A stretch of DNA of 64,000 nt from Tubulanus polymorphus (taxonomy: Eukaryota > Animalia > Nemertea): assembly GCF_964204645.1 (NCBI RefSeq), contig NC_134035.1:7534451-7598450 (forward strand). The letters run 5' to 3'. Under the pieces are notes generated by a model that saw only the letters and a list, made by a program, of their open reading frames with translations, did no database searches and was not told where the DNA came from. The position numbers and the translations under genes are program-made. Shown piece after piece: positions 25,085 to 63,869 of the stretch; positions within the stretch are counted from its first letter, which is position 1, and every line of letters starts with the position of its first letter.

Positions 25085-25114
25085 GAATATAAAGTTAATA
25101 TTGATGATATATAA

Positions 25115-28551: not shown

Positions 28552-28731
28552 TTATCAGGGGAAAAAATTAAAAGTGGTGTTGAGTGATATTCTGACCTCT
28601 CGACCTCTGGTATGAAAACCCACTTTTCCAATAACTGATATTCATATAAATGATATTCATATAAATGATATTCATATGAAATTCATATATATGAAATTAA
28701 AAATATGAAAAAATAATTCTAATTTCTAATC

Positions 28732-29925: not shown

Positions 29926-30364
29926 AACATTGAGAAAATGATCGCTCAATTTAGATATAACTTAGACCAATTGCTTGTTGTTATTTGAAATATCAAATCA
30001 ATGAATTAAATGAATAGTTTATGAGAAGCTTTTTACAAGCTAGTTTGTTGCAATTTATGATATCAAATCAACAATGAAATGAATAGTTCACGACGATTTG
30101 ACGCACTAATTAGTTATAATTAATCGAATCAAGAGTTTGGTTGAAAGCATTAGATTAAAATTCTTGTTCTTCTTTTTTCTTATTCTTATGTGATCGGTTT
30201 GCCGGTTGATGACGCACATCCAATTTGATTGACAAACGTTTAAGTTTGATAAAATAAATTCCGCATCAGAAATGGTGTCTTCAAGTTGGGATTAAATTTG
30301 GTTTAAAATAGTTGAATACTTTTTGCTGTGCCCTCTTGGAAAAATGCTCTCCACGCCGTTTACG

Positions 30365-31640: not shown

Positions 31641-31665
31641 ATAAAATATTGTATATAAATATTAG

Positions 31666-32067
31666 AGTAAGTGTTTAATAGTTGTTTCAGGCTAGAGGTT
31701 GAAAGGTTGAGTGAATAAAAAAACAAATATAAAAAGTAATTTTAATTTCTAACCTTAATATATATTCATAGTCGTGTGTATTTTAAGGTAATTATTAAAG
31801 GAATAAATTAATATTACTAGAAAAGATTTAATTATATAAATCTATTCTATTGTGTTTAATATAAATTGGTCGCTCCGTTCCCAATTTATTCAATTTCAAT
31901 AAGCTTTGAAATTAAAATTACTAATATTTTAGAATAAATGTTTATACAATATATTTAAAAATACACACGACTATGAATATATATTATAGTTAGAAATTAA
32001 ATTACTTTTTATATTTGTTTTTTTATTCACTCGACCTCTGGCCTGAAACAACTATTATACACTTACT
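31666..32067. repeat. 402-bp fold-back with ~115-bp inverted arms that have Polinton-like AGT...ACT ends and a central hairpin
   Basis: Arms at 31666-31784 and 31958-32067; hairpin ATAAATTGG-TCGCTCCGTTC-CCAATTTAT at 31861-31889. Confidence 0.9.
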
Positions 32068-33091: not shown

Positions 33092-33661
33092 AATCGTCGA
33101 CGTAATTCCTCGATTCGTTATATGCAAGGATCGTGAAATTACCTCCAGAGAGTGATGAAATTGATGGAAGATTACACGCGATTATGCGATTGCTACACGT
33201 GAACTACGTCCATTTTCTTGGCGTCTTTCTCATGGAAGCAAGCCGATCAATAATCATTATACATCATATTTCTGTAGCTTGCCGCCGACAATGGATATCA
33301 CTCGATAGTTTCTTAAGTTCAGTCCGTAGTTTTCCGATAGAACATTATGATTCACTGTTTCAAATGCACGTAAAAGGTCATAAAATTTTCCTAACGGCAT
33401 TTTATATCAATGGTTCTTCCTGAATAGAATCCAAATCGATATGGAGACGGTATTATATACTTTAACCTCATGTGTTTATTACCTTTTCTAAGATCGTAGA
33501 AACACACGGGAGGAGAGATGATGCCGGTCTGTTCTAGATTTAGCCAGAGGTATTATATTCGATGATTTTAAAGATTCGGGTATTTGCTAATGTAGACAAA
33601 TATATACTGAAAATATGAACTAACGGCAGACACAGAAATAGCACGAGGATCTTTGGACTGA

Positions 33662-44300: not shown

Positions 44301-47300
44301 AGAACTCCACTCCTGGCATCGAATACCAAATGTCTCGCTCATATTTCCTCGATACCCAGTACCTGACACGCGTAACTTACAGTAATTCACTGCCTGGCTC
44401 GCATCTGTTAGAAAACGATTCTGACATTTAGCGAGACGCTACTTCGACAAATATCAGCGATTAGTATATTGCATCATCATAACTTATTGTTAGTTTTTTT
44501 TTTTATTGATTCCCAGCTTTTTTGCTAATATACCCCTCAGGGTATTTTTGTCCCTTTTCTTTGCTACAGTAGCAATGAATTCGTGTAACTTATTCATTTC
44601 ACTAAAAAATAAGCTTATTGAGAAATAATCTGAAATATTGAAATAATAATGAGAAATATTGTTTTGTCTCGTGTTTTCGTATGTCTTTGCACGTCAGGTT
44701 TCAGTGAGCACTCACCTTTACAGACCGGTAAATTGTTTGTCACCCATTTCGCCTCGGTTGAACACGATACTTGAGTGTTTCCAGCGACCAGGTAGAACGT
44801 ATCATCGCACTGATACTGAATGCTTTCACCTGCTTTAACCACTCCCTTCGCGTCTGTTTGAGCATTTTCGATTGTCGGTGGCTTCGGACAGACATCTTAA
44901 AAATGACAAACGTAACGTAAATTGTTCATATAGCACTAGCGAGATGAGTCAAAGCGACGTTTTATTTTTGGATGAAAAAATACTCTTTTAATCAGAGAAC
45001 AGGATATGGGTACTAACAGTAAATGGACCACAGCCACACCGACCAAACCAAATTACAAACTCTGTCCAATACTGGTCAGAGAATTCACACCTAGACCTTG
45101 ATTGGCCATAACGTCAGTCAGGTGACTGGTGACTAGTCACTACGTACATCTGACTGGCCACCAGTCACTACAATCACCGGACAAACTTACAAACTGTCCA
45201 ACACTACTGGTCTATGGTCTAGTTGTTAGTGTGCTCAGTTGGCGTACTGAATGTTGCAGGTTCGAGACCTGCTAGGGTTAGGGTTACGTTCGAGCTAGGC
45301 TTAGGTTTACGGTGGAGCTAGGGTTAGGGTTAGCGGCGCTTTGGGTTTAATTTCTCGTGCAGCTAAGGTTAGGAAGATTTTCTTTTTGAAACTAAGAACT
45401 AACAATGACAATTCCTGGCTGTGGGTCCGAAACAAATATTGGACGTTTACTGAAGTAAACAGTCTGAGTTGCTACTGCTGACAAAATAATGCGTGATGAC
45501 GTAAAAACGTCACGAACAATGACATCGACTTCCTATTTTATGTCACATATACGAATATGTGCCGATTGAAATCATTAACAGAAATCAATCTGTTTTGAGC
45601 CTTGTGTTAAAATTAGTTCATTTTCAATTATTTTATCCAAGAGTCATAAACTCAAGTGGATCTGCCGACACTTAAAAGTGCGTATGACCGAACTACAGTG
45701 CATTTCAGTTATTAGCTCCGACCATTGTCAGCTAAAAATACGAAAATCGAAGTTCGACCTGGATGTAATTGCAAAATCCCACCTCTACCAGCCTAACGAG
45801 TATGGTTCATTGAGGTGTATATTCTGTATTTTTTCATTGCGCAGTTAGGAATGATTCGTTAAAGATAATCCAACATTCTGTATTGTGATACTAAACCAAT
45901 CCTTTGGAACGAATTCTTTTCGGGGAATAATTCATTTTCAGATATACTTATTTATGCTTTTTCATGATAAGCTACTCCATCTATAAATGAGCCTGTTACC
46001 AATAATTTACCTTCACAATTAAGGTTATTTGTCGAGTAGACACCGGTAGATAGACAAGTCGACATGACAACTTTATTAGCTATGCTGCTACACTGGTACT
46101 CGACAATGTCGCCTTCAACGTAGACATTTTTCCGATTCGTTATAGTAGCACCGTTGACCTCTTCCGGCGGTCCACAACTCACTGTTATAAAAGACGTAAG
46201 CCATTGTGCATTCATGATTAGATCTAATCTATCTTATTTTAGATATCATATTTGATCTATTTTCTATCTTGTTTTCTTATCAGAGCGTAGTGGGCCTTCA
46301 GGTGTGCAGCCATTTTGTCGTCCAATTTTACATCCTGTCACATGGAACATTTTATTTCAACAAAGCTGAAAATTCTTGTTCTCTGACGAATAAACTTTGG
46401 TTTAATATACTGTACTATAAACCATTATTATATAGACTACCGAACAAAAACAAAACAGGTGTTTGCCTAAAAACATTTCTATTTCCGTACAATTGCTAGA
46501 GATATTATCAATTTGTGAGTGAATTAATTTCTGTGAAGCTCTATTGATGACGATAGGAACGTTTATTCAGATCATTCTGAAACAGAGATAGTTTTATTAT
46601 TTATTATTTCATACTCACTTTTACAACGTGGTATGTTACAGAAAACTGGGTTCCCTCCGATTTTGGTATAACACCACGGTCTTTCTGCCGGGTTCGTACC
46701 CGGATTTCGACAGTAGTTAGAAGCCGCTTCGATCGACCCGTCCAGGTTGCTCCAGTGTTCAGACGACGAATACGCGTGACTGAAAGACGACCACGCGATA
46801 CACTTTTCTCCACTATCAGTAACGGCTCGGTTTCCCAAATATTCGACCCCTTTGTTAGAAATCAGACAATTTCTTACGGCTGTCGGATGGTCTGAAAAAA
46901 ACACTAACTACATCAGTTACATATATAACGATCCTAAGTGGACAAGTATCAATATATGAATTCGCCAGAAAAACGATTTTCGTATAAATCAGTTCATTTT
47001 GAAATAATTTTGTTCATCTTTTCAAAATGATCGCATCAATGAAATCAAGTTTAATGAACTAAGATATCAAGAAGATAAGAACAGCATGAGCCTCTGTCTA
47101 TTATTTTGTTGTTGCTGACCCATTTCCAAAATGAAAATGCGATGTTTCTTACCATAACACGAAGGAACTGAGCTTTGCCAGAGGTTCTGATTGCCAAAAC
47201 ATACTAGTGAACGTTGAGCTTGTACATCGTGTGAGTAATGTCCGGCACTGCAAGCAACAATTGCCGTATTTCCAGTTTGGTAGGAAGTTTTCGGATCCAC

Positions 47301-48436
47301 CAATAACATACCAGTGCCAATAACCGGTGCGAGGCATGTATTAACTGTTATTTCTATTGATTATACCAAAAAACAAACTGGTAAATATGATGCGTTATGT
47401 ACGATATTCTGAATTCAAAATCGTAAAGAATATTCAATGGATAAATCTCTACAGTAACTACACAAAAACGTCTCAGTCGTTTTCTTGTATTTCGCCGAAT
47501 AAAATTTGATACAATGATCATGAATAATGTTTCTGTTTAATCGAGAATGATTTTTTGAAAGGAAATAACGAAAGACCACATTTAGGCCACATATAATGTC
47601 CCCGGACGATTTGTGGTTGTCCATTGTATATTGTAAATGTTATGTTTATAATAAAATTCCAATAGTTAAAAAAATAAAAAAATAAAAATAACGAATGTCA
47701 TCGGGACGCTTCCGAAATTATCCGCAGCTAAGGATCATATACATATATACAACTGTATTACTTACTGTAGCATTCTGGCTTTTGACCCTCAAATTTTCCG
47801 TCGTTCTGGCATTGACGATTCAGCTTTCCTGTATATAATTGATAGCCATCCAGACAGCTGAGATCCAACATATCACCGGTTTTATAACTCGACTTTAATT
47901 CCAGTAACTTCGTACCTTGACCCAATACTGGTGTGCCACAACTAATACCTACAGTTGGTATGTAAATAAGGAAGGCAATTCCGTATGAGCGCGGGATTGA
48001 GATGAATCAAACTATGCCCCTAACGTAGTAATATATCGCAAATTACATCATAAATTTTGGAAACTATTTCAAGGTAATCCTGTTACAAATGTAATTCGTT
48101 AATTCTTCGTTTCAATTGCACGCAATTCCATGAATATGAGACTCAATTGTTTGAAATTGTTTTTCTTTTGCTTACTGCAAACTGGAATAGAGCACTCTTG
48201 CCATCTCTGAGCCGGATCAGCTGTATAACACCAAACAGTCGTGTGGTTGCCCATAGGATTGCGACAGTAATTCACTGCCGCCGCGACGGACCCGCTAGGA
48301 AAGTAGCTATCGACGTTGTAGACGTGCGCATGCGGTGTTTGCGAAGCCCACGGCTGACAGACGAGTCCGGTTTTAGTGACCGCTACCGTACCCGTGTACG
48401 TGTCGCCCTTGACCGTCGGCAAACAATGGTTTTGAT
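35331..48436 (-). CDS. Multi-exon mosaic protein with kringle and sushi/CCP repeats plus C-terminal Cys-rich (resistin/PCSK9-like) modules; 5' exons lie beyond the Polinton
   Basis: Kringle exons (NYCRNP, PWCY) at about 48176-48436, 46617-46892 and 44164-44405. Sushi exons at about 47765-47950, 47152-47345, 46011-46183, 44715-44896, 43840-44041, 43491-43737 and 41525-41740. Cys-rich exons at about 36852-37058, 35757-35894 and 35331-35472 (stop). Boundaries are approximate. Confidence 0.8.
35990..36710. repeat. ~32-bp minisatellite (CTCAGACAATCTGCTGTCTGTACCCAGCACTC), intronic
   Basis: More than 20 tandem units; it accounts for the spurious repetitive ORFs. Confidence 0.95.
37295..37520. repeat. 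~75-bp tandem repeat, 3 units
   Basis: TGACATCATGAGACTC...CCCTCAGCAGGGA recurs. Confidence 0.75.
37880..38400 (+). mobile_element. Highly degraded LINE RT remnant
   Basis: Remnants of DLTKxFD- and LQKRAV-like motifs. Confidence 0.45.
38405..39570 (-). mobile_element. Second copy of the 28821-29925 repeat, interrupted by a Penelope-like fragment (about 38536-39020)
   Basis: Long sequence identity with 28821-29925; the insert carries GGATGATGGC...GCCGAAACGTTG. Confidence 0.65.
42030..43279 (+). mobile_element. Probable non-autonomous Helentron/HINE-like repeat
   Basis: Internal tandem units, a (GGAC)n microsatellite at 43210-43230, and a 3' hairpin TGGGACT-AA-AGTCCCA followed by an A-run. 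Confidence 0.4.
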
Positions 48437-48755
48437 CTATTGATAGAAAATGAAACGATGAAAACCCCGTTAACAATTGAACCTGGTATGAGTATACGGT
48501 ATTACGCTCATTCGACAACTGCTCAATCCAAGGTCAGACAAACAAAAAAGAAGTATTAGGTCTAATTCAAAAAATGTCGAGTAACGAGAGAAATCCAACA
48601 ATAAATTCAGCCAAAAATGAAAAAAGTCGACAAAAATCCACTATATAAAAGAAAAACTATCTGATAGTTTAGTAATTAGAAAAGTGGGGTTTCAGATCAG
48701 AGGACGAGAGGACGAGACACCACTCATCACCACAAGTAATTTTTTTTCCTTATAA

Positions 48756-51700
48756 ATGGGGGAGAATGAACACCAACCAGAAAACAATAATGTTAATAAA
48801 AATCAATATTATTGCACATATTGTAAAAAATACGTTGATACATCTAATAAAACACGACATGAAAAAACTGCAAATCATATAAAAAATGTAATAGATTTTG
48901 AAACTCCAGAAAATTCTAATGAAAGAAAAGAACGATTAGAAAATATGAATGTGGATGAAATAAAATGTGAAGTTTGTAATGAATTTATAGTAAAAAGGAA
49001 TTATAATAGACATCTCGAATCACAAAAACATTATAAAAATTTAAATAAAAATGTTTTAGGATTAGAATATTTTGATAATAAACCTCAACAAGTAAAAGAA
49101 TCAACTTCAAAAACTAAATCCATTTCAAATAAACCCTACATGGAAAATGTTAGAAATTATATTGATTCACTAGAAATAAAAGATACAATTGAAATCTTAG
49201 AAACATTACATAGTAAAATTGGTCCTGCAGCTATTATATTTAGATTTTTTAAAGGTACAACAATAGAAGATTATAGTAAATTTAATGAAATAATAGAAAA
49301 AATACTAGATTTGATAACAGATGTTGAATATCCAAAAATTAGTATCTCTGGGAAAGTAAGTTTTATAAAGTCAGAAGAAAAAATGGATTATAATATTCAA
49401 ACACTCTCTGAAGAAATAATTTCAAAAACACAAATAAAAGATAAGTTAGAAAAAATAGTAAATGAATTTGAACGTCATATTGAAGAAAGATATTTTGAGG
49501 GTTCTGGCTTAACATTGAATGAAATTATATATTTAGATTTAAATGTTTATAATACAAAAAGGAATAAAACATCAAAAAGTAATAAAATGTTTAAAAATGA
49601 TTCAAACTTTACAACAGAAAAGGATATTAAAGCATCATCTTATATTAAATTACCATTTATAACAAAAGCAGTAATAAATATTCAAAATGAAGATAATAAA
49701 TGTTTTCTATGGTCAATTATTAGTTGCTTACATCCAACACAGGAAAAATGTTTGTAGAATAACAGATTATCGGAAATATGAAACATTATATAAAATTGAT
49801 CAATATCCAGTAACTATAAAAATGATTCCTAAAATAGAAAAAGTTAATAATTTAAAAATAAATGTATTCGAATTAATGCAATTACCAAAAACAAAAGGTG
49901 AAAATATTAAAGATTATACATTGGAAGCTTTATATTTAACAGAATATTATGATGATGAAAATGCTATAGATTTGTTATATTATAAAAAAGATGAAAATGA
50001 ACATTATATGTGGTTAAAACAAATTGATTTATTCTTTAGAACAACAGAAAGTGATCATCATCGTAAAATTTATCTATGTAGAAAATGTTTATCTAAATTT
50101 ATGACTGAGAATACATTATTAAAACATAAAGAATTATGTGATAATAAAGATTTTTGTAAATTAATAATGCCAACAGAAAAAGATTATAAATTGAAATTTA
50201 CTAATCATAAATTTAAAAATATTATTCCATTTGTAATTTATGGGGATTTTGAATCGTTGAATAAAGAATTAACTGATCAAGATAGAAAAGAAATATATAA
50301 CAAAAAGCAATTATTAAAATCAATGGATAAAGGAAATGAATTAAATGAAGACACAATACAAGACCCACCAATTATAAATACAATTAAAAAAGTTCATCAA
50401 AGAGCTGCTGCTTATGGAATTTACATCAAATCAAATTATCCCGAATTATATGAAAGTCAATATATTTCTTTTAGAGGTGAAAATGTAGTTAATGATTTTT
50501 GTGATAAAATGATTGAATTAGAAAGTGATTTTACAAAATTATTAAACAAAAATAAAAGAATAGTTATGACAAAAGAAGATGAAATTGATTTTAATTATGC
50601 AACTCATTGTTGTTATTGTGAAAAACGTTTTTATTCATTTGATAAAAGAGTTAGAGATCATGATCATTTGAATTCAAAATATCGTGGAGCTGCTCATGAA
50701 GATTGTAATTTACAAGCTAAAAAAGTAAATTTCGTACCAATATTATTTCATAATTTATCAGGATATGATACCCATCTATTTATAAAACAATTATCGGGAA
50801 AATTGGGTGCAATTAATCAAGAAATAGAAGAATATAATGCTATGAATGAAGCAAATGTAAGAAAATATGATTTTAAACTATTAGCTAAAACATCTGAAAA
50901 TTATATTTCATTTCAATTTGGTTGCATTAGATTTTTAGATTCTTATAGATTTCTAGCAAGTTCATTAGATAATTTATCAAAATCATTAGTTGATAATGAT
51001 TTTATTATAACTCGATATTATTATCCAAATGAACAAGATTTTAAATTATTGAGATATAAAGGCGCAATTCCTTATTCATTTTATAAAACACATGATGATT
51101 TTAATGTAACAGAATTATTAAAAGATCAATTTTATGATCAATTAAAAGAGGAGTATGTGAAAGACGAAGTTTTTAATAGAACATTTAATATTTGGAACCA
51201 TTTTAATATGAAAAATCATGGTGAATTAGTTGATTTATATTTAAAATCAGATGTTATGATATTGGCAGATATATTTGAAAAGTTTAGAGAAGTTAATCTA
51301 AACCATTTTTATGTTGACCCTTGTTATTGTTATTCAAGTCCTGGTTTAACCTGGCAATGTGGTTTAAAATATACAAATGTAGAATTAGATTTATCAAAAG
51401 AACCAGATATGGTTTTATTATTTGAAAAATCAATTAGAGGTGGAATTAGTGGTGTTATGGGAGATAGGTATTTTAAAGCAAATGATGAATATAAATTATT
51501 ATATATTGACGCCAATAATTTATATGGTTGGGCAATGATGCAACCTCAACCATACAAAAATTTTATATTAACAGAAGTTGAAAATGATGATAAAACTGAT
51601 TGGGAAAGCGCAATTACGAGTTTAAAAGATGAAGCACCAATTGGTTATTTCTTTGTAGTTGATTTGGAATATCCCGAAAATATTAAATTTAAAACAAGAA

Positions 51701-53823
51701 ACTTGCCATATTGCCCGGAACATTTAGCCGTAGATGATAGTTATTTAAGTGAATACCAGAAGAAAGTAAAACCGAAAGATCATGTTTTTACGGAAAAATT
51801 AATACTTACTCAAAATAATAAATACAATTATATTGTTCATTATAGAATGTTAAAATTTTATCTAAAACAAGGAATGAAATTAAAGAAAGTACATAGATAT
51901 ATTGAATTTAATCAATCGAAGTGGTTAGAAAAATATATAGATTTCAATACTCAACAGAGAACCATATCAAAAACAGATTTTGAAAAAGATTTCTTCAAAT
52001 TAATGAATAATAGTTTTTATGGTAAAACTTGTGAGAATATTCGTAATAGAAACGATATTGAATTAGTAAATAATTCTGAAAGATTAAGACATTTACAATC
52101 AATTCCTAGACATTTAGGAAATAAAAGATTTGAAGATTATTTAACAGCAGTTAAATTAAAAAGAACATCAATGAAATTTAATAAACCTATATTTATTGGT
52201 TCGACTGTTTTAGAAGTATCAAAATTATTAATGTATGATTTTTATTATAATGTTTTACAACCACTTTTTGGAGAAAAACATATAGAAATATTATATTTTG
52301 ATTCTGTTACAGCAGACACCCCAATATTATTAAAATACAATAATAAAATATTGGTAAGAAGAATTTCAGAAATAATTCCTAATCAAAATAAATCTTATAT
52401 TTCATATGGTGAAAAAGAATTAATACAAATAAATGGATTAATAGATGTTTGGACAAGAAATGGATGGAAAAAATTAAATAATATTATTAGACATAAAACA
52501 AATAAGAAAATCTATAGAGTTAGAACTAAATTAGGATTTGTAGATGTTACAGAAGATCATAGTTTAATTAAACAAAATGGTGATGAAATAAAACCAACTG
52601 ATATAAAAATTGGAGATGAATTATTACATAAAAGATTTTACCCAAGAATGAATCATATGTCATTTGATGAAATAATTGATAATATTTATAATATAGAACC
52701 CAAAACATTAGAAGAAAAAGAATATTTTATCAAAGGATTTTTCATAGGTGATGGTTCAGCAGGTGTGTATAATTATGTTAGTGGAACTAAATATTGTTGG
52801 TATTTATGCAATCAAGACTTAAAATTATTAGATAGAATTAAGAAATTTTGCGAAGAAGTTTATTCACATAAAACATTTAGAATCATGGATGTTATGAAAT
52901 CATCAGCAGTTTATAGAATACTTGTAAATAATCCTAAAGATTTTGCTATAGAATATAATGATGAATTCTATATTCATGCAATAGTGAAAAGTAATACTTC
53001 AACAAAAGAAAAGATAGTTCCAGATTATGTATTAAATGCAAAAAATAATTTAAGAAAATGGTTCTTCATTGGGTTCTACGCAGCCGATGGTACTAAAAAA
53101 TTTACAAAGGATAAAAAGATAACCTTTGCACAGAAAGGAAAAGTTGCTATATCAGGGTTAAATATATTATGTAATTCATTAGGCTTCAATATGAATATTG
53201 GATTGATTAAATCTAAACCAAATTGTTTTAATCTAAGCCACACAGAAAAAGATTTAACTGAAGAAGTTAAAGATTTATTTGAAATATATAACCCAACAGA
53301 TTATGTTTATGATTTATCAACAGATGATGGAACATTCAATTCTGGGTTCCCATTAATCCAAAAAAATACTGATGCATACATACTAAAAATCAAGACAAAT
53401 GATATAACAAAAGACTTAAAAACATTAAAACATCATTTTGATTTTAGCAATTATCCTAAAGATCATGAACTATTTAGCAATGATAATAAAAAGATTCCTG
53501 GTAAATTTAAAGATGAATTAGGAGGTGATGAAATGATTGAATTTGTTGGGATAAGAAGTAAAATGTATTCATATAAAACTAAAGATCATGAATCTAAAAA
53601 GTTAAAAGGAATAACAAAACATGTGGTTGATAAACATATAGAATTTCAAGATTATATAAAGTGTTTATATAAATCAATTGTAATGAAACACAAAATGAAT
53701 TGTTTAAGATCAGAAAATCATGAAATGTATATAAATGAAATTGAAAAAACTAGTTTAAATCCATTTGATGATAAAAGGCATATTTTAGATGATGGTATAA
53801 AAACATTACCTTATGGTCATTAA
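48756..53823 (+). CDS. polB: Protein-primed family B DNA polymerase (N-terminal zinc fingers, exonuclease with endonuclease VII-like insert, intein); one 1-nt frameshift at about 49742-49748
   Basis: Motifs YGDFES, RDHDH..YRGAAH..CN, FHNLSGYD, YIDANNLYGWAM, KLMNNSFYGK, YFD/TD, PGKFKDE, RSKMY and DDKR. Confidence 0.93.
52303..53367 (+). mobile_element. Intein (355 aa) with LAGLIDADG homing endonuclease, inside pPolB motif C
   Basis: YFD|SVTADTP (block A), VDVTEDHSL (block B), FIKGFFIGDG and FFIGFYAADG (LAGLIDADG), YVYDLST (block F), IQKN|T (block G, +1 Thr). Confidence 0.95.
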
Positions 53824-55120
53824 AACATAAAATCAAAATCATCATACTCGAAATCACTACTGGTTTCTTTAATTTTATTTAATTGTTCAGGTTCTTCTTC
53901 AATTCCATTTTTCTCATTTAAATAAAGTTCTATCTTGTTCCACATTTCATCTCGCTCTCTTTGTTTCTTTTTGTTTGTTAATTCGTCAAATGGAATTATA
54001 ATATCTATGTTTAAATAATTTACAATCTTATTTAAAAAGAATTCATAATTTATTGAATCTGTTATTCTATTTTCCAAATGATACATTAATATTTGTTTGA
54101 ATATTTTTTTAATATTTTCCATATCTTCTTCTGTTAATTTAGGTTTTTCATAATAATCGTTAAATAATAAATATAAATACATTTTCTTTTGTTTTGTGTT
54201 AAATGTTGATGGAATAATTGTTTTTATAATATCTTTTTTAGTTATTTCACCATTTTTATTTTCTATTATTTTCATTTTTTCAAGCCATTGCATATATTCT
54301 GGTGTATGATCTTCTATAGAAAATGTTTTAAAAATTTCATCAAGATAATTTAATTTTGGTTCTAAGAGAAAATCTCTAGTTTTTTCTTCACCCCATAAAT
54401 TCTTTTGCCATCCACATTCAACACAAAATAACACAGCACCTTCTTGTCTTAAGGTCGCATAACTACATTGTGGGCATTTTCGTTTATAATTTATTGGTAA
54501 TAGATCTTCATTAAGCTCTTGGTATTTTCTTACGTTTTCTTTATGTTTTATTGTTCTATTATGTAGATTTGAATTACTTGTTGTAATAATCAATTTACAA
54601 TATTTACAATAATATGTTTTTCTTGTTAATTCATTATATTGTTTTTCTAACTTTTCAACTGTTTCTTTATTATCTGGTAACGTTTTCTCATATTTTATTT
54701 TTTCTAATAAATTATTTTTTCTTTCATTGAATTCAGTTTCAAATTTATTAGAAATTTTATCTATATGTGCTTTACGAAATTGATGATTCTCCCAATCTTC
54801 TATATTTTCAGGGTTATATTTTATTCGACAAGGCTCACAGAAATGATCTTTTATATTATCCTTATCATAGAATAAGAAAGGTCTTTTCCAAATAACTTCA
54901 GGTTCAACTTCGGCAGATTTACTATCAACATTAGCCGTTGCGCCATTAATTCTACACTTCTCTGAATGTTTTTAACATAATTTCTTGAGAATAATTTATT
55001 ACATTTTGGACAGTTTATTTTAGGGGGTTTATAATTTTCATCATGTTTTTTCATATGTCGAGCCATATTACTTTTTCTGATAAGTTCACTACAAATTTCG
55101 CATGCTATCTTCTCATCCAT
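53820..55120 (-). CDS. Multi-zinc-finger protein fused to a poxvirus A2/VLTF3-like late transcription factor (~433 aa after restoring one base in the T5 run at 54969-54973)
   Basis: The frame is open from 54971 to 53820. Zinc ribbon CPQC..CVECG, then IFKQILMYHLENRITDSINYEFFLNKI and DEMW. Confidence 0.75.
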
Positions 55121-55188
55121 TTATTAAGGAAAAATTTTATTAAAATTAATTTTTAATGATGAGCGGTAATTTTTTTATGTTATAAATA

Positions 55189-55941
55189 ATGGTAGAATTA
55201 AAAGAATACAGAATATTTGTAGATTCTAGAAGGCTTACAAATTATAAATCTCATAATTTATTAATACAATTAGATAGAGAATTTAAGAATTGCGTTGATT
55301 TAAAATTAGTAAATATTAGTTTATGTAATTCTTTTTACAATGTAACGGATAAAAGTCTTGAACATTTAATTTTTTCAATCTTTTATAAAAAAAGGAATAA
55401 ATGGTTTTTTATATATTTAAAACCAGGATTATATAATTTAAATACATTAGCACAAGAAATTAATAGAAAAGCTCGAGCTAAATTAGGAAGTGATTCTGGA
55501 TTTAATATTAGAATTTTAAAAAGTGCTAGTTCTAATAAAATAAAGATTAGGTTAGACGAACAATTTAAATTTACAGTAAGAAAACCTTTAGGTAAACTGT
55601 TAGGAATTGCCCCTGATATTGTTACAACATATGCAGAAGGTAAATCAAACTTAATACCTTTTACACATTTTTATATTTATTGTAATTTAATCGATCCTAC
55701 AAAAACATTCGAAGCAACTAAAGATATAACTTGTAATTCTGGTTTACTAAACATTTTACCATTGAAGAATGTTAAAGAATTTGGAACGCAAATAAATTAT
55801 AATTTAACAGAATGTGATTTCAAACCATGCATTCCTAGTTTTAATAATTTTAAATTAGAAATAAGAAATCATAATGGATACTTAATTGATTTGAATAATT
55901 TCCCTGTAATTTATGAATTAGTTATAAGATGTAAAGAGTAA
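55189..55941 (+). CDS. Minor capsid (penton) protein
   Basis: Motifs IFVDSRR, NSFYNV, PGLYN, IYCNLI and EIRNHNGYLIDLNN..IYELVIR, the single jelly-roll pattern of Polinton pentons. Confidence 0.75.
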   Translation: MVELKEYRIFVDSRRLTNYKSHNLLIQLDREFKNCVDLKLVNISLCNSFYNVTDKSLEHLIFSIFYKKRNKWFFIYLKPGLYNLNTLAQEINRKARAKLGSDSGFNIRILKSASSNKIKIRLDEQFKFTVRKPLGKLLGIAPDIVTTYAEGKSNLIPFTHFYIYCNLIDPTKTFEATKDITCNSGLLNILPLKNVKEFGTQINYNLTECDFKPCIPSFNNFKLEIRNHNGYLIDLNNFPVIYELVIRCKE

Positions 55942-55957
55942 TTTTTCACCTATATAA

Positions 55958-56311
55958 ATGAATATAACTGTTGGACCGAGTATATGTTTTGGTTTTGATT
56001 TTAAACGTGAGAAAGAAATGAAATTTAATATGAATGATGTAATTACACATATCAAAAATATTGCATTTTCTAATGAAACAACATTTGAGTATGAAACAAC
56101 AATAGATAAAGAAACTTTTAATGTAGAAAAGATTACTAATTTAATTAGAGAATCTTTAAGATTTTATGAATTAGATGAAGATTTTATCATCGATGATATC
56201 AAAAAAATAATAATTGAAATATATACAAATGAAACTAGTAATAAAATAAATGTTGAATTAATCATAAATAAGTTAACTAAATATTTTGAAGATAGTAATT
56301 TTTTTGATTAA
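55958..56311 (+). CDS. Polinton hypothetical protein (117 aa)
   Basis: Intact ORF with the T-run/TAAATG start. Confidence 0.7.
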   Translation: MNITVGPSICFGFDFKREKEMKFNMNDVITHIKNIAFSNETTFEYETTIDKETFNVEKITNLIRESLRFYELDEDFIIDDIKKIIIEIYTNETSNKINVELIINKLTKYFEDSNFFD

Positions 56312-56314
56312 TAA

Positions 56315-56536
56315 ATGAGTGATAATAAGTGGATAATAACTGGATTATATAATGGAGCATTACTATCAGTTGGAACGGTTGGTTATTCAATGGTATTAAA
56401 AAAAGTATTCAAAATGGGAAGCGTTAATGTTGATAGATTTGATATAAATGATATTTTAAAGTTAACGTTAACAATTACTTTATCTAATTTAACAATTGAT
56501 TATTTGGAAAAACAAAAATATATTCCTCCCATATAA
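56315..56536 (+). CDS. Small hydrophobic protein (73 aa)
   Basis: TAAATG start; two hydrophobic segments. Confidence 0.7.
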   Translation: MSDNKWIITGLYNGALLSVGTVGYSMVLKKVFKMGSVNVDRFDINDILKLTLTITLSNLTIDYLEKQKYIPPI

Positions 56537-56560
56537 ATGAATAATTTTTTTGCTAAATAA

Positions 56561-56983
56561 ATGGCTTCTGCAATTATAACTATTATAGGATCAGCAATTG
56601 TTAACGCTTTAGCATTTACAGGTGGTGGTTATTTATTTAAACATATTGATAAAAATAGTTCATTAGGAGAACAAAGAAGACATAACTTAGCGTTAGAGAA
56701 ATATAATAAAGATGCAGAAGAATATAGAGAAAAGAGACAAAACTATATGGATTACATCAATAAAGAATTATATGATCAGAAGATTTCACATAGAGATTTT
56801 CAATCAGTTGATGATGCAATGAGTTTATATAACGCGGTAACCAATAAAGAAAAATTACATCTATACAAACCTAAATTATCAGATTATTATACCCCAAGTA
56901 AAGAACAACAGAAATATGAAATAATATGGATTTTAGGTGGAACAGTTATTGTTATATTTGTTGCTTATAAGTTTACTAATTAG
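56561..56983 (+). CDS. Membrane-associated protein (140 aa; N-terminal hydrophobic helix, coiled coil, C-terminal TM)
   Basis: MASAIITIIGSAIVNALAFTGGGYLF..RHNLALE; ends in IIWILGGTVIVIFVAY. Confidence 0.8.
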   Translation: MASAIITIIGSAIVNALAFTGGGYLFKHIDKNSSLGEQRRHNLALEKYNKDAEEYREKRQNYMDYINKELYDQKISHRDFQSVDDAMSLYNAVTNKEKLHLYKPKLSDYYTPSKEQQKYEIIWILGGTVIVIFVAYKFTN

Positions 56984-57002
56984 TAATTTTTATTCTAAAT
57001 AA

Positions 57003-57437
57003 ATGGAAGATAAAGTTGATAGTATTGATATCATTCCTCATGATATAAATAAAACTAAATTAAAAATATATTTAGAAAAACAAATATTAGAATTTGAAAG
57101 TGACCTAAAGATAAAAAAGAAAAAATATTTAAAAAGTAAAATTATATATTATTTGATTATAAGTGGTTCGGTTACAATTAGTTCTGTAATAACATTTCTA
57201 GCAATATTCAGTCCATTAACACCTTTAGCTATATCAATTGGTGTATTAGGATTAAGTTCAAGTGTTTTAACTGGTATAAGTTCAAAATTAAATATAAAAA
57301 GTAATAAAGAAAAAATAAAATCTAATATAAAAGAAATTAATAAATTAAAGAATACACTAGATTATATAATAAGTTTAAATGGTCATATAACAGTTGAAGA
57401 ACAAGATAAATTATTAAAAGAATTAATAAATTATTAA
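57003..57437 (+). CDS. Two-TM coiled-coil protein (144 aa)
   Basis: Hydrophobic hairpin flanked by Lys-rich helices. Confidence 0.75.
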   Translation: MEDKVDSIDIIPHDINKTKLKIYLEKQILEFESDLKIKKKKYLKSKIIYYLIISGSVTISSVITFLAIFSPLTPLAISIGVLGLSSSVLTGISSKLNIKSNKEKIKSNIKEINKLKNTLDYIISLNGHITVEEQDKLLKELINY

Positions 57438-57453
57438 TTTTTTAATTATATAA

Positions 57454-58842
57454 ATGGTAGATAGTTTTCCAAAAGCTTTCCAATATAATAAATCAATTAA
57501 ATATAATATTCCAGCAATAGATTTTAATAAAGATATTACATATAGAAATGAAGTTTTAAATTCATTAATTGATTTATATATTTATGTTACTGAAACTAAT
57601 AATTTTAATGCAAAGATGGAAAATATATTTCATGTATATTTAATTGATTTTAAAAAATTGAAAGATGAAAAACAATGGTTATTAAAATCTAATATGAAGT
57701 ATTGGCAGAATCAATTAAATTTTGCTGTTTATTGTGCAACAACAGGATGTGGAATTAGTTGGAATGATCATTTGAATAATTCTAAATATAAACTAATTCA
57801 AAGTTTATTTAGATTTCATACATACTTTCAAATCAGAATAATATTAAATGAATTAGAGTGTGCTTTACCAGGATCTAGATATTTTAAAGAATTGGATAAT
57901 AATATTAATTTATCTAAGTTTTATAAAATTTGCAATGAATTTAATATAGATATAAATAATTCTGATTTTAGAATAAAAATTGGAACAATAAGATCACTTC
58001 CATGCCCTAGAAAGATTGCAGAATATTGTGCACTTCCTATACCATCTAATAGTTTTTATAATATCTATAATAAAAAATTAGGTTATGGTAAAATAGAAAC
58101 AAAGGATTTAGAAACATTAAATTTCAATAAATTACCGAAATTTTATGATAATTTAAAACAAGAAAACAATAATGGTTGGGTATATTTTATTTTAGAAAAT
58201 AGTGAAGGTTTTACTAAATCAGGTATAGAAAGAATAAATCAATCTATTAGAACTTATTTGATATGTATTTTAGGCGCGCAAGTTGAAACAAGATCACCGA
58301 TAATTGGAAATTTGAATACATCATTCGATACACAAAAACAATTCAAAGTTTTATTTGAAGATTCAATTCATAATGATAAAAATAGATCGATTCCAGAAAA
58401 CATTATAAGATATCAAAATTATTTAGATAAATCTCATGTAAGACTTAATTATTGTATAGGCCCTAATCTATTAATTATTTCTAATGATTTAGTATTAAAG
58501 ATGGGAAATATAATTGGTTATAATAATCTAAGTAAAACTGCGACAATAAATAATTCATTTGGATTAAATGATATAAATAAAAAGATTATTACTGCTCCAA
58601 AATTAATGGAAGGTGAAAAAAATAAAAAACATATTCAATCAACTGAAACTAAAACTAAGAATATTAAATTGGATAATGATTCCAAAATAAAAGATTACAA
58701 TACATCAGAAGATATAAAAACTGATAATATTCAACATGATATAATTAAACAAAATGACGATAATAAATCCCATGAAAATACTAAATTAGCTATAACTTGT
58801 ATAGGAATTGTAATCGGAGGAATATTATATTTTAAATTTTAA
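57454..58842 (+). CDS. Polinton protein of unknown function with C-terminal TM anchor (462 aa)
   Basis: WQNQLNFAVYCATTGCGISW motif; ends in LAITCIGIVIGGILYF; tail conserved in the decayed copy. Confidence 0.85.
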   Translation: MVDSFPKAFQYNKSIKYNIPAIDFNKDITYRNEVLNSLIDLYIYVTETNNFNAKMENIFHVYLIDFKKLKDEKQWLLKSNMKYWQNQLNFAVYCATTGCGISWNDHLNNSKYKLIQSLFRFHTYFQIRIILNELECALPGSRYFKELDNNINLSKFYKICNEFNIDINNSDFRIKIGTIRSLPCPRKIAEYCALPIPSNSFYNIYNKKLGYGKIETKDLETLNFNKLPKFYDNLKQENNNGWVYFILENSEGFTKSGIERINQSIRTYLICILGAQVETRSPIIGNLNTSFDTQKQFKVLFEDSIHNDKNRSIPENIIRYQNYLDKSHVRLNYCIGPNLLIISNDLVLKMGNIIGYNNLSKTATINNSFGLNDINKKIITAPKLMEGEKNKKHIQSTETKTKNIKLDNDSKIKDYNTSEDIKTDNIQHDIIKQNDDNKSHENTKLAITCIGIVIGGILYFKF

Positions 58843-58858
58843 TTTTTTTATTATGTAA

Positions 58859-58996
58859 ATGGATGTAAAAGGTGTAGAAGATATTCCATTGGATCCTTTA
58901 GATGAACCTGGTATAAGTGATGAACAACAACCTGATTTTGATGAAACAAGTTTCAGTAATGATAATAAAACGGTATATAATACTAATTTAGGTGAA

Positions 58997-59029
<33 letters not shown>

Positions 59030-60478
59030 TATGATGATCCCGAATTACATGAAAAATTAAATAAAATTAAAATTAAAATAACAGTTACAATTGTTAACGA
59101 AATATTGCCAAAAGATGTAATAGATGAAATTGGTTCAGAAGAAATTGTAAAACAAATTTTAAAAGATGATCCATTTTTCATGAATAATTTAAAATTAAAA
59201 AATAATGTGTGGTATTATAATGTTGAATTAAATAACAAAATTGTATCAGTTCAATTATCTAAAATGAGACAAGAAAATCTGTTCCATATAGAAATGCGAG
59301 CAAGATCTACAATTGAAGGTTCAAAAGGCGGTAGAGAATTTCTCAGAATTATATGGAATGCAATCAATAGAATAAATGAAGAAGAACCAATTCCTAATAT
59401 TGATATAAACAAATATTCACCATTTAAAAATCCAAATCCAAATCCTACTGATTTTGATCCAGAGATGGAAGAGAATAGAAATCGATTAGATAGATTAAGA
59501 TCTTCAACACCCGAAACATCTAGAAGAGATATTCAACAAATTGATAATGATTCAAATCAATTACAATTAGGAAAACATTTTGATAGCATGTTAGATGCAA
59601 TTCATTCATTTGACGAAGAGATGAATAGTATTTTAGATACACCCAGTACTGAAACTGAAATAAATCGAATACAATCTTTACTAGAAAAAGGATTACTTGA
59701 TTTAACTGATGAAGAATTAAAAGAATTTCCTGAACAAGCACGTAGAGAAATTAAAGGAATGCAAGAATCAGCTGGTGAAATTGCTAATATTAAGATGAGA
59801 TTTTCTAAAATAACCATATTAGAAAAAGAATTAGTTAATGTAGATGAAGAATTAAAACAATTAGAATTAAATAGAGATCTTCAATTAATCGAGGAAGCTG
59901 ATTATGAAAGCAGAAAGTTAGCTTTAGAAAAAGAAATAGATGATTTAGAATATAACATAAAATTACAAAAAGAAGAAAGAGATACATTATTAAAATCATA
60001 TGATCTTAATCATATTAAAAAATTAAAAGTTATTTTTAAAGATTTGTTGATAAAACCAGATTCTAAAATATCATTGAAAGATAGAATAAAATTATTATTT
60101 AAATTAGAAGGAATAACAATTCTTTCAATTCTAACAGCTGTAACTATGGTATTTACAACAATTGGTTTAGCTATATCAAATGCTTTAAAATCTACTCCTA
60201 CTCCCACTCCAAATAAACCAGATAAACCTCCAGGCAATAATTCTATACAAGATAAAGTTAAGGATGGTTTAAAGAAATTAGCAAAATATTTATGGGAACT
60301 ATCTAAAAAATCTGCTGCAGCTTTACCAGGAGTTATTGCATCAATTGTTGGTTTTATATTGAAATCTGCAGGAAACATTATTAACTTTGCTGCTGAACAT
60401 ATTATTTTATTTTTAATTACAGTTGTAAGTGCTATTATTTTTGGTTTAGTAAATATGATATCAAAAAATATCAAGTAA
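58859..60478 (+). CDS. Acidic/coiled-coil protein with multiple C-terminal TM helices (539 aa)
   Basis: Intact ORF; C-terminal hydrophobic helices conserved in the copy at 23.4-23.9 kb. Confidence 0.85.
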
Positions 60479-60549: not shown

Positions 60550-61797
60550 ATGAGTGGGAGTTATATAAGTCCTTTGAAGAATCATAGAATATCTAATGCT
60601 ATTAAAGCAGAAAGATCACATCATATAATTACTCATAACCCTTCTAATATTAATCCCGATGAAACTTTATACGTTAGAATCCCTCGATTAACACAAAATA
60701 CTTTTTATGTTCCAAACAGTATTTATTTATCAACCGATATAAAAGTAACTGGCCATGATAACAATTATGTTGTTGATAATGTTGGAAGATATTTGATTAA
60801 AAAATTAACTATAAAGATTGGTCCGGAAACAGTTTTCTCATTAGATGATTATAATTTATTTATGCATTATAAAGATTTATGGTTAACTAAAGAAAATAGA
60901 AATAATATGATATTTCAAGGCATCCAATCGGAAAACCATAATAAATTAAGATCTGAAGCCAATAATGCAGTAGTAACTCGTGCCACAGATAATTTGATTA
61001 AAAAGATTTATGGAAGCAAATATAAAATTCCATTAGACTTTGAATTGATAAATAATAATGCACCTTTATATAAATACGCAATTCAAGAAGATATTATATT
61101 TGAGATAACATTTGCTCCTGTAAATGAAATTGTATTATCTAGCGTTGTTAAAGATATGGGTTATAAATTATCGAATATATGTTTAGAATATAACACAGTA
61201 ACTAATGAAAATATTGCTAGCACAATTCAAACTCAATACAATCAAGGATTTTCATTATTATATGATTATATTGATAAATTTAAAACTGTAACTATTAATG
61301 CAAATGATGAAATAATTAATGAGAATATTAACTTTCCTAGAAGATCTATTAAAGGTATATTAATATTTTTTACTATTGCAACATATTCTAATGGTGCAAT
61401 AAATGTTGATAATTATTATAATCCTGAAATAACAAAAGTAGAAATAACTATCGAAGGTATAGCGAATAAAATATTTTGTCAAGGAATGAGAATGATAGAT
61501 CAATGGCCAGAAATTAGAAAACATTTTATGAATGAAAAAGTAAAATCATTTGAAAATTGTAATATTAATCAAATTGATTATTATACTGGTAATAAATATG
61601 CATTATGGTTAGATTTTAGAACAACTGAAGATAACTTATTACATGGTTCTGGAAAAAAACTACAAAATACAAAAGATGGAATACAATTATTCATGAAAAA
61701 GAATAAAGGAATCAAAAATTTTAAAATGCACATTTATATTATATCTGATGCGCAATTAAATATTGTAAATTCACAATTAGATAGTATTCAATATTAG
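60550..61797 (+). CDS. Major capsid protein (double jelly-roll, inferred)
   Basis: 415 aa, beta-rich; NPSNINPDETLYVRIP, ALWLDFRT..LHGSG; located next to the integrase and ATPase. Confidence 0.8.
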   Translation: MSGSYISPLKNHRISNAIKAERSHHIITHNPSNINPDETLYVRIPRLTQNTFYVPNSIYLSTDIKVTGHDNNYVVDNVGRYLIKKLTIKIGPETVFSLDDYNLFMHYKDLWLTKENRNNMIFQGIQSENHNKLRSEANNAVVTRATDNLIKKIYGSKYKIPLDFELINNNAPLYKYAIQEDIIFEITFAPVNEIVLSSVVKDMGYKLSNICLEYNTVTNENIASTIQTQYNQGFSLLYDYIDKFKTVTINANDEIINENINFPRRSIKGILIFFTIATYSNGAINVDNYYNPEITKVEITIEGIANKIFCQGMRMIDQWPEIRKHFMNEKVKSFENCNINQIDYYTGNKYALWLDFRTTEDNLLHGSGKKLQNTKDGIQLFMKKNKGIKNFKMHIYIISDAQLNIVNSQLDSIQY

Positions 61798-61827: not shown

Positions 61828-62955
61828 ATGGGTGGTAAAAAATCTCCTAATACTAAAGAACAATATTTAAGAAATTTATATTACAACCCTGAGAGTTCGG
61901 TTGCTTATTCTTCTACTAAAAATATATGGCGTAAAGTAAAACAAGATAAATTAGATAAGATAATCCCACAAAATTTAGTTAAATATAAAGATATAAATGA
62001 ATTTATGTTAGAACAACCAACGTATACAACACATAAAAAAATTGTTAGAAAATATAAAACTCGTAAAACTATGGTAAGTTATGTAGATCAACAGTGGCAA
62101 GGAGATTTAATTGATATGAAAAATGTTAAGAAAGATAATGATGATTATTGGTGGTTATTGAATATAATTGATATTTTTAGTCGTTATGTATGGAGCTTCC
62201 CACTTTATAGAAAAGATGCTGTACAAACATCAAATGTTTTAAGAAAATTTCTTTCGGATGATAAACTAAAACCAGAAAAAATACAATTTGATGATGGAAA
62301 AGAATTTGATAATTCACTTGTTCATGAACTCTTAGATAATCATAATATTAAATATTTTTCAACAAAATCAGATAAAAAAGCAGCAGTTGTTGAACGATTT
62401 AATAGAACATTAAGAACAAGAATGTGGAAATATTTTACAGCAAATAATACTTTTAAATGGATTGATATTTTACCAAAATTGATAGAAGGATATAATAATT
62501 CTTATCATTCTTCTATTGGAATGAAACCTATTGATGCTAGAAAACCTGAAAATGCTGAAATTGTTTGGAATAATTTATATGGAGCATTTCTTATAGATGA
62601 TTTTGGCGAACCTAAATTTAAAGTTGGTCAAAATGTTAGAATTTCTAAGTATAAAAAGATATTTGATAAAGGATACGATCGAAATTTTACTAGAGAAATA
62701 TATAAAATAAAAAAGGTAATAACAACAAAACCATATGTCTATAAATTAGAAGATTTAGATGGTGAAGAAGTTGATGGCTACTTTTACGAAGAAGAATTAA
62801 GTTTAACTACTGAAAATCTAGAACAAGAATATAAAATTGAAAAAGTAATAAAAACAAAAACTATTAAAAGAAAAAAATATTCTTTAGTAAAATGGGTTGG
62901 ATGGCCAGATAAATTTAATGAATGGATATTATCAAGTAAAATTAAAAATATATAA
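61828..62955 (+). CDS. Retroviral-like (rve) DDE integrase with C-terminal chromodomain
   Basis: WQGD, IDIFSRY, QFDDGKEF, VVERFNRTL; chromodomain YKIEKVI..LVKWVGWPDKFNEWI. Confidence 0.95.
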   Translation: MGGKKSPNTKEQYLRNLYYNPESSVAYSSTKNIWRKVKQDKLDKIIPQNLVKYKDINEFMLEQPTYTTHKKIVRKYKTRKTMVSYVDQQWQGDLIDMKNVKKDNDDYWWLLNIIDIFSRYVWSFPLYRKDAVQTSNVLRKFLSDDKLKPEKIQFDDGKEFDNSLVHELLDNHNIKYFSTKSDKKAAVVERFNRTLRTRMWKYFTANNTFKWIDILPKLIEGYNNSYHSSIGMKPIDARKPENAEIVWNNLYGAFLIDDFGEPKFKVGQNVRISKYKKIFDKGYDRNFTREIYKIKKVITTKPYVYKLEDLDGEEVDGYFYEEELSLTTENLEQEYKIEKVIKTKTIKRKKYSLVKWVGWPDKFNEWILSSKIKNI

Positions 62956-63564
62956 ATGAATAAGGAATTATTCATATTTGAGCCTCATAATATGTTAATT
63001 TCTGGTGTAACAAATTGTGGAAAAACTTATTTTATATTACATTTATTAGAAACTGTTTACGAAAACTATTTTGATAATATAGTATTATTTTGTCCAACAT
63101 ATGAATTTAATCAAACTTATGATAGAAACATTACTAGAAATAATAAATTTATTATATTAGATCCTAAAACAGTAAAAGAAAATTTAGATAATTGTATAAA
63201 AATAGCAATTGATATTTATAAAGGATCAAATACATTATTTATCATAGATGATTGTGCTAATCTACATGATTCAAAAGTTAGAGAAAGTGAGTTATGTTAT
63301 TTAGCTTTCTCTGGAAGACATTTTGGGATAACAACTTGGGTTTTAAATCAAAAATATAATTCAATTGTTAAAGATTTTAGAGAAAACATTAGATTTCTAG
63401 TTTTATTCTACAATAAAGATAGAAAATCAATGAAAAATGCACTTGAGGAAAATGATATTATTCCACATGATTTACATAATGAATATATGGATGAGTTGAA
63501 AAATATTAAAAGATCAAAATTACTATTTAGATTACAACACCCATTTAAATATGAATTTATTTAA
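62956..63564 (+). CDS. A32-like DNA packaging ATPase
   Basis: Walker A GVTNCGKT, Walker B FIIDD, GRH motif, LNQ. Confidence 0.92.
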   Translation: MNKELFIFEPHNMLISGVTNCGKTYFILHLLETVYENYFDNIVLFCPTYEFNQTYDRNITRNNKFIILDPKTVKENLDNCIKIAIDIYKGSNTLFIIDDCANLHDSKVRESELCYLAFSGRHFGITTWVLNQKYNSIVKDFRENIRFLVLFYNKDRKSMKNALEENDIIPHDLHNEYMDELKNIKRSKLLFRLQHPFKYEFI

Positions 63565-63860
63565 ATTCAACTAGTTTGTTAATCTAATTGAATTCTAGTT
63601 ACATTCTAGTTGAATTCTAGTTGTTAGTAGTTGAAACAAAAATCAATTAGATTTAACAATATTTCAACTAGCTTGTTAATCTATTTTAATTCTAGTTACA
63701 TTCTAGTTGAATTCTAATTGTTAGTAGTTGAAACAAAAATCAACTAGAATGTAACTAGAAATAAACAAAAACAACAATATTTCAACTAGCTTGTTAATCT
63801 AGTTGAATTCTAGTTACATTCTAGTTGAATTCTAGTTGCAACAACACAACTAATTTGTTT
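63565..63860. repeat. Intergenic CTAG-rich direct and inverted repeat array
   Basis: Units of TTCTAGTTACATTCTAGTTGAATTCTAG; a homologous array lies at about 26830-27025. Confidence 0.85.
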
Positions 63861-63869
63861 GTTATATAA

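Follow-up and report, generated by a model that had tools for sequence, protein, structure and literature searches.

A stretch of 64,000 nucleotides from the genome of the nemertean Tubulanus polymorphus (NC_134035.1, positions 7,534,451 to 7,598,450; hereafter the window, whose coordinates are used throughout) carries an element which, judged by its genes, is a Polinton/Maverick. One of these genes (53820-55120, minus strand) is predicted to encode a VLTF3 domain fused to four zinc fingers. A promoter-like motif, with a layout that matches the late promoters of vaccinia virus, was found at nearly all of the starts in the element.

Identification of the VLTF3 domain

The gene is present as two overlapping open reading frames (ORFs) on the minus strand, A (55120-54851, 89 aa) and B (54971-53820, 383 aa from stop to stop). 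ORF B contains CPQC-x13-CVEC, KLNYL and IFKQILMYHLENRITDSINYEFFLNKI, and thus all of the C-terminal motifs upon which a previous, sequence-only reading had based its assignment to VLTF3. The vaccinia A2 motif quoted in that reading is a genuine chordopoxvirus-type A2 motif, which was matched by 37 records with ORFs of 224-232 aa. The C4 zinc ribbon (CPQC-x13-CVEC, 54414..54476, minus strand) could be aligned by hhalign, and its 4/4 poxvirus-invariant cysteines are kept in three element proteins, from the window and from two related loci named L001 and L002. It is followed by a helical VLTF3 domain (53901..54365, minus strand), with a possibly cyclin/TFIIB-like fold in the predicted structure.

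Searched against Pfam on its own, without the rest of ORF B, the window domain matched Pox_VLTF3 with an E-value of 2.4e-5 and 24.5 bits, 0.5 under the cut-off of 25. No such match was obtained for the whole of ORF B or for the L001 and L002 domains (one match in three elements, from the window only), and none of A2L_zn_ribbon, though the ribbon aligns with that of the entomopoxviruses. In hhalign the three element domains matched five entomopoxvirus-type VLTF-3 proteins at 96.7% (E-value 3.9e-10) over 181 columns, from the ribbon to the last helix, the domain being full length and collinear with entomopoxvirus VLTF-3. In the ESM Atlas the Pox_VLTF3 clusters stood at 0.96, with 220 of 256 features in common. 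Sequence matches in the PDB (HIV capsid fragments, E-values of at least 0.026) were set aside as chance.

The AlphaFold model of the protein had a mean predicted local distance difference test score (pLDDT) of 64, with values of mostly 75-87 within the VLTF3 domain; a single-sequence model of P0002, the counterpart from L002, reached a pLDDT of 35.6 and was unusable. Searched with the predicted structure, Foldseek returned 13 matches from BFVD at E-values of 0.001 or below, eight of which were named VLTF3 or late transcription factor, and gave a target-normalised TM score of 0.57 to cowpox A2. Against the PDB nothing was found at this threshold, Rap94 and TFIIB chains topping the list. In VIA, chains of TFIIB, ORC6-type, cyclin and Rb proteins were recovered at Z 5-6.5 (root-mean-square deviation 3-5 Å, 84-110 aligned), the first three kinds heading the list at Z 5.7-6.5. 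A TFIIB/cyclin-like fold of the helical domain is thereby no more than suggested. A significant VLTF3 match was thus obtained by four methods (Pfam with the domain alone, hhalign, ESM Atlas and Foldseek), and the identity first proposed from the motifs is borne out.

Zinc fingers, relatives and the frame change

Four zinc fingers had been claimed upstream of the VLTF3 domain; they are there, and all four recur in P0001 and P0002, the proteins of L001 and L002. Finger 1 (C-x2-C-x11-H-x3-H; 55043..55102, minus strand) gave weak Pfam C2H2 matches below the cut-off. Finger 2 (54954..55012, minus strand) is cut by the break between the ORFs, frame A holding its CxxC (55012-55001) and frame B its H-x3-C, and its counterpart in P0001 is whole (C-x2-C-x11-H-x3-C). 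Both are short C2H2/C2HC fingers below all Pfam cut-offs. The P0002 counterpart of finger 3 (C-x2-C-x14-H-x5-H; 54765..54839, minus strand) matched zf-C2H2_jaz above the cut-off, while finger 4 (U1-type, C-x2-C-x11-H-x5-H; 54543..54608, minus strand) matched zf-U1 at 29.1 bits (cut-off 22), as did, above the cut-off, the first finger of the protein-primed DNA polymerase B (pPolB) of the element. By tblastn within the window, fingers 4 and 1 aligned with the two N-terminal fingers of pPolB (43% over 35 aa, E-value 1.7e-4; 45% over 29 aa, E-value 1e-3), which upholds the likeness noted previously, and the VLTF3 protein and pPolB are shown by these alignments to have a finger type in common. The fingers do not form a Kruppel-type C2H2 array: zf-C2H2 stayed below its cut-off, the two H-x5-H fingers (3 and 4) are 52 residues apart, and finger 4 is a zf-U1. 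What has been described of the U1 and JAZ families is mainly an affinity for RNA or for other proteins.

Relatives were sought by phmmer with the last 234 residues among 1.84 billion representatives, giving five matches. Two of the five, P0001 (697 aa, E-value 1.6e-48; a cluster of three near-identical members) and P0002 (446 aa, E-value 2.8e-24), are fully fused, with four fingers, ribbon and helical domain in a single ORF. P0003 was a distant partial match, and P0005 was dropped as an unrelated zinc-ribbon repeat protein. The contigs of P0001 and P0002 were recovered as the loci L001 and L002 among 593 candidates. In L001 the VLTF3 gene faces an uninterrupted pPolB gene, in the layout of the window. 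As P0001 and P0002 are uninterrupted, the fingers and the VLTF3 domain are truly fused, and only the window copy has the break; the two parts are not separate genes in intact copies. The whole of ORF B found no homologue in a word-indexed search and only P0002 in an alignment search. No relatives were found in IMG/VR by protein, alignment, capsid or pPolB, nor in prokaryote genomes, phages or PHROGs, and the decayed element copies in the window hold no VLTF3 remnant. Between the window and L001 the VLTF3 gene is 52% identical, against 89% for the polymerase core, with nonsynonymous divergence (dN) of 0.36 and 0.06, respectively; dN/dS is unreliable at the AT content of the element. Within the P0002 ORF, amid DNA that is otherwise AT-rich, a GC-rich insert (DAAGGSGA) occurs twice in frame (L002:660-690 and 1502-1530).

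Comparison of ORFs A and B placed the shift of reading frame in a run of five A (54969..54973, minus strand). Both frame changes of the element, this one and that in pPolB (49744-49748), sit in five-A runs, which make up 5.9% of its coding bases; their location is consistent with slippage or with an assembly error at homopolymers. Neither gene is interrupted in L001, and the window copy of the VLTF3 gene is probably either inactive or, at the break, wrongly assembled. Programmed frameshifting was rejected, as the relatives are uninterrupted and no canonical slippery heptamer was seen. The VLTF3 and pPolB genes are convergent, with overlapping or adjacent stops and no room for a terminator (window 53820-53823; L001:2135-2140). 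As a matter of speculation, read-through between them would yield double-stranded RNA, a possible ligand of U1/JAZ-type fingers.

Affinity to poxvirus proteins

The VLTF3 set was gathered by motif and comprised 37 chordopox-type records (11 retained at less than 85% identity) and 6 entomopox-type proteins. A giant-virus set of at least 120 stretches (119 ORFs, 73 complete, 25 retained at less than 62%) was chosen by one motif. The window domain scored 33.0 bits with the chordopox profile, 32.8 with the entomopox profile and 59.4 with the two combined (17 sequences), against 9.0 with the giant-virus profile (25 sequences). With our own poxvirus profile, E-values of 2e-20, 7e-17 and 4e-17 were obtained for the three element domains.

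In a tree of 46 rows, which is unrooted and has long branches, the element proteins lay on the poxvirus side of a 100/100 branch and formed a grouping of their own (79/89). They are 20-22% identical to the poxvirus proteins, where chordo- and entomopoxviruses are 24.5% identical to each other. Among 31 columns nearly invariant in the 17 poxvirus proteins, those kept in all three element proteins were 4/4 in the ribbon, 0/1 in the linker, 1/13 in the first helical half and 7/13 in the second. By these comparisons the protein is poxvirus-type relative to the sampled giant-virus set, yet not nested in Poxviridae. The label "poxvirus-type" given by the sequence-only reading therefore holds in the first sense (59.4 against 9.0 bits) and fails in the second, the 99/94 branch of the poxviruses excluding the element.

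Promoter-like motif

With the first ATG of every ORF taken as its start, TAAATG opens 11 of 12 element genes; the twelfth reads TAAATAATG. A thirteenth start, at 63870, was first spotted through the motif and for this reason is not independent. TAA joined to ATG was found at 12 of the 13 starts, compared with 34 of 609 other ATGs, a background which is somewhat low because first ATGs of ORFs lie near stops. At ten of the 13 starts a T-run at -16 to -10 and a 6-nt spacer come before the start motif. In leave-one-out matrix scoring, 12 of the 13 starts exceeded all 609 other ATGs, and none of 1441 host ATGs reached 8 bits. Both L001 starts (2/2) and both of the decayed-copy starts tested also outscored all 609; the L002 start was weaker on this matrix, 2 of the 609 ATGs scoring as high. 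The motif keeps the same register at starts that have no upstream neighbour on the same strand (pPolB, VLTF3 gene), and at genes preceded by gaps of 71 and 305 nt.

Two sub-classes could be distinguished. An A-rich core stands 11 nt before TAAATG at the starts 55120 (minus strand), 61828 and 62956, and the T-run at the other ten genes. The VLTF3 gene has the former (AATAAAA, 11 nt, then TAAATG overlapping the start codon; 55118..55145, minus strand), and the A-rich form is kept in the same layout before the VLTF3 genes of the relatives (L001:44 and L002:243).

Vaccinia late promoters consist of T residues, 5-7 bp, and TAAAT(G/A) overlapping the start site, according to a review (PMC5294985), in which A2L is listed as an intermediate gene. 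Compared as sequences, the T-run, 6-nt spacer and TAAATG match this layout. By analogy, the A-core and T-run sub-classes resemble the intermediate and late classes of poxviruses, in small numbers. TAAATG also stands at the start of 6 of the 15 ORFs from two entomopoxvirus loci. A reading of the T-run as chiefly an early terminator of poxviruses (T5NT) was discarded, since T-runs also precede genes without an upstream neighbour; T5NT counts within ORFs revealed no consistent depletion.

Gene content and setting of the element

The AT-rich element runs from about 48671 to the window end, with 23.5% GC against 38.9% in the host part, and its insertion site adjoins kringle and sushi exons of an animal gene. 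Its identification as a Polinton/Maverick is based on the predicted pPolB, rve integrase, A32 ATPase and probable double-jelly-roll capsid. The hallmark pair is present in Pfam (DNA_pol_B_2, 2.5e-19; rve, 2.6e-10), together with Pox_A32 (9.8e-13), the capsid being recognized through a weak Pfam match and Atlas look-alikes. No RNA polymerase was found by Pfam in the 14 element ORFs scanned, nor in five right-end fragments, four of them from a decayed sister copy. The same ORFs and fragments gave no Pfam match to an adenovirus-type cysteine protease, which most group 1 Polintons have, the element being incomplete in the window.

The likely left end (48671..48725, plus strand) starts with AGT and resembles the L001 end and also, near 28640, the right-hand end of a decayed copy. 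The pPolB gene (48756..53823, plus strand) has two U1-type fingers at the N-terminus. Within its active-site motif (YFD|S...N|TD) lies a 355-aa LAGLIDADG intein (52303-53367, plus strand); the L001 polymerase is without it, and the flanks are 79-81% identical to the window pPolB. To our knowledge, inteins are not expected in animal nuclear genes, so its presence hints at contact with intein-bearing large DNA viruses.

Beyond the VLTF3 gene the plus strand carries a probable minor capsid protein (55189..55941), proposed from its size, position, strand-rich sequence and a weak DUF5901 match and bearing the variant motif given above, and six genes of 117, 73, 140, 144 (SLATT-like), 462 and 539 aa (55958..60478), each starting with T-run and TAAATG. 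The probable double-jelly-roll major capsid protein (60550..61797, plus strand) has a weak Capsid_N match and the T-run motif; its Atlas look-alikes stood at 0.97-0.98, with Capsid_N on 14-24% of their members. A retroviral-type integrase with chromodomain (61828..62955) and an A32-type packaging ATPase (62956..63564) follow on the plus strand, both with A-rich core and TAAATG. Downstream of the ATPase gene an 86-nt, partly palindromic repeat occurs three times (63566-63866), and a match to it lies near 26830-27010, in the decayed copy.

The element has decayed relatives at 22600-28640 (right part 83% identical, end near 28640) and 30300-31740, which include a 70%-identical fragment of the pPolB N-terminus. 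The host flanks (44000-48530, 32063-33181) contain kringle and sushi exons and a rhodopsin-family G-protein-coupled receptor. A RhoGAP-like exon beside the L001 element end (L001:6418-6507) indicates that L001 is likewise integrated in a eukaryote.

Comparison with known systems

Like poxvirus VLTF-3 (vaccinia A2, entomopoxvirus VLTF-3; PF04947 and PF08792), the element protein has a C4 ribbon followed by a helical domain of about 150 aa and an INYEFFL-type C-terminal motif. It differs by its four fingers and about 200 extra N-terminal residues, the chordopox-type ORFs being 224-232 aa, by its 20-22% identity and branch outside Poxviridae, and in being encoded by an element with no visible RNA polymerase.

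VLTF3 in Polintons is already known. Stony coral polintoviruses have been reported to carry it (PMC11131425, with reference to Krupovic and Koonin 2016); VLTF genes, along with SLATT, appear in genome-map figure keys of MELD and Polinton-like viruses (PLVs; PMC8502044, 10.64898/2026.06.19.733378, 10.1101/2022.07.28.501842). These are likened to the window element by description only; the descriptions, in the portions available, do not give domain architecture, poxvirus affinity or promoter analysis, and the supplements of the coral paper may bear on the architecture. Starrett describes VLTF3 as mimivirus-like, and VLTF3 is treated as a nucleocytovirus signature (PMC11253617).

PLVs have been reported from entomopoxvirus occlusion bodies (Barth et al. 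2024, PMC11296320). They are, like the window element, small capsid-encoding dsDNA elements of animals, and are proposed to be parasites of poxviruses. They differ in their size of about 12 kb, in having a cysteine protease, in the absence of an rve integrase and in their physical tie, through the occlusion bodies, to a poxvirus. The main text has no mention of promoter, VLTF, TAAAT or transcription factor.

Sputnik, mavirus and the PLV Gezel-14T have promoter motifs in common with their helper nucleocytoviruses, the first two using the late promoter class of the helper extensively, according to 10.1101/2022.07.28.501842. This virophage-like feature, a helper-type motif at the genes of the element, is present here at the level of the motif, when set against the layout in PMC5294985. 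Those systems have protist hosts and mimivirus-type helpers; the window element has an animal host, a poxvirus-type motif and a late factor of its own.

Neither VLTF nor promoter is mentioned in PMC10748475 and 10.64898/2026.10.13.758929, nor promoter in the available part of 10.1101/2024.03.23.586382. On Polinton/Maverick late promoters or poxvirus-like helpers, the literature search turned up, in the texts accessible, only papers on protist virophages and general reviews. We did not find the finger-VLTF3 fusion or the TAAATG motif of Polintons in the literature, supplements, figures and most subscription journals lying outside the search.

Transcription of the element

The sequence-only reading had suggested an adaptor that might bind element DNA and that recruits, or competitively inhibits, the late transcription complex of a helper; this interpretation is supported in part. 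The helper idea has gained independent support from the promoter motif. The choice between recruitment and inhibition is not decidable by sequence; recruitment is favoured because the element's own genes use these promoters.

We give preference, at somewhat less than an even chance, to the element being a satellite of a poxvirus-like helper, with its own VLTF3 steering the helper RNA polymerase to the TAAATG promoters of the element. The motif would then be a poxvirus-class post-replicative promoter, read by the helper polymerase in the cytoplasm. Helper factors would first turn on the genes with the A-rich core (VLTF3 gene, integrase, ATPase), after which the ribbon and helical domain, working like TFIIB, would serve the structural genes with their T-run promoters. 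The fingers, of the type common with the pPolB N-terminus, would tether the protein to nucleic acid of the element and thereby tilt transcription in favour of the element, and any slow-down of the helper would be a side effect. It is also possible, if on balance doubtful, that this animal Polinton lineage consists of virophages of an undescribed, deep-branching poxvirus-like virus, with a two-step (intermediate-like and late-like) programme and their own finger-tethered VLTF3.

Several points weigh against such a satellite. A helper virus, a transcript of the element and a start site have not been observed. VLTF3 also occurs in viruses without RNA polymerase, namely medusavirus (PMC8400408) and CpV-BQ1 (PMC12085832). 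As regards the protein, the top Foldseek E-value belongs to a Megaviridae VLTF3, the VIA scores of Z 5-6.5 are of a size that common helical arrangements also give, the first helical half keeps only 1/13 of its poxvirus-invariant columns in all three element proteins, and short VLTF3s were found in Preplasmiviricota clusters of the Atlas. The element proteins fall outside the branch of chordo- and entomopoxviruses (11 and 6 rows, 99/94), and the VLTF3s of asfarviruses, iridoviruses, mriyaviruses and PLVs are outside the tree. The entomopoxvirus starts are without the T-run and reach at most 5.2 bits on the element matrix (14 scored), so the element motif matches a promoter class and not a known helper. 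Finally, L002 is too short for gene context, the Polinton context resting on two elements (window and L001), and the right end of the element lies beyond the window, its gene content being known up to the window end.

A rather unlikely alternative is an autonomous nuclear factor, a TFIIB-like protein which, with host TBP, would bring host RNA polymerase II to the element promoters without any helper. In its favour, polymerase-less viruses keep VLTF3 (PMC8400408, PMC12085832). Recruitment of the host enzyme would also agree with the modelled TFIIB/cyclin-like fold, with a gene outside the sampled Poxviridae, and with the integrase, by virtue of which the element reaches the nucleus; participation of host TBP in vaccinia late transcription has also been reported. 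However, at 12 of 13 genes the start codon is overlapped by TAAAT, which as an initiator would leave no templated leader. The poxvirus polymerase adds a poly(A) leader, which solves the problem of the missing one. Moreover, the VLTF3 gene itself bears the motif, so that something else must start it, and the protein is poxvirus-like when set against the sampled giant-virus set.

It is improbable that the protein is a decoy, which would use its ribbon and C-terminal half to bind the polymerase of the helper without completing initiation, block late transcription of the helper and thereby protect the host. The retention of poxvirus-invariant residues in the ribbon (4/4) and second helical half (7/13) and not in the first (1/13), and the much faster change relative to the polymerase core between window and L001 (52% against 89% identity; dN 0.36 against 0.06), would be in keeping with it. 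However, a plain inhibitor would silence the capsid and packaging genes of the element, which are on the same promoter class; the domain lines up in full, and collinearly, with that of entomopoxvirus VLTF-3; and the losses in the first half may be alignment error, because the alignment is weak at about 20% identity.

Least probable of all is that the motif results from tight gene packing in AT-rich DNA (a stop beside a start, 3'-end signals) and that the VLTF3 gene is unrelated accessory cargo. In favour of this, only short gaps separate the genes, the previous gene ends with the TAA at -19 in three cases and with the TAA of TAAATG in one, the background of 34/609 is somewhat low with first ATGs near stops by definition, and AATAAA lies within 5 of 13 motifs, but this leaves the isolated starts (pPolB, VLTF3 gene, gaps of 71 and 305 nt) unexplained, and the motif has been kept by L001, L002 and the decayed copy though the proteins are 33-49% identical.

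Significance

The transcription of animal Polintons and their need for a helper are an open question in the field. The promoter motif is what has been added to the first reading of the gene. A strict motif at nearly all genes, with poxvirus late spacing and beside a poxvirus-type late factor, makes the helper question directly testable. The finding also bears on the direction in which VLTF3 was transferred, from nucleocytoviruses to Polintons or the reverse. The helper reading, if true, predicts an unknown poxvirus-like virus in the hosts of these Polintons, and the element would then be a satellite equipped with its own form of a general transcription factor of its helper, with which to take over late transcription.

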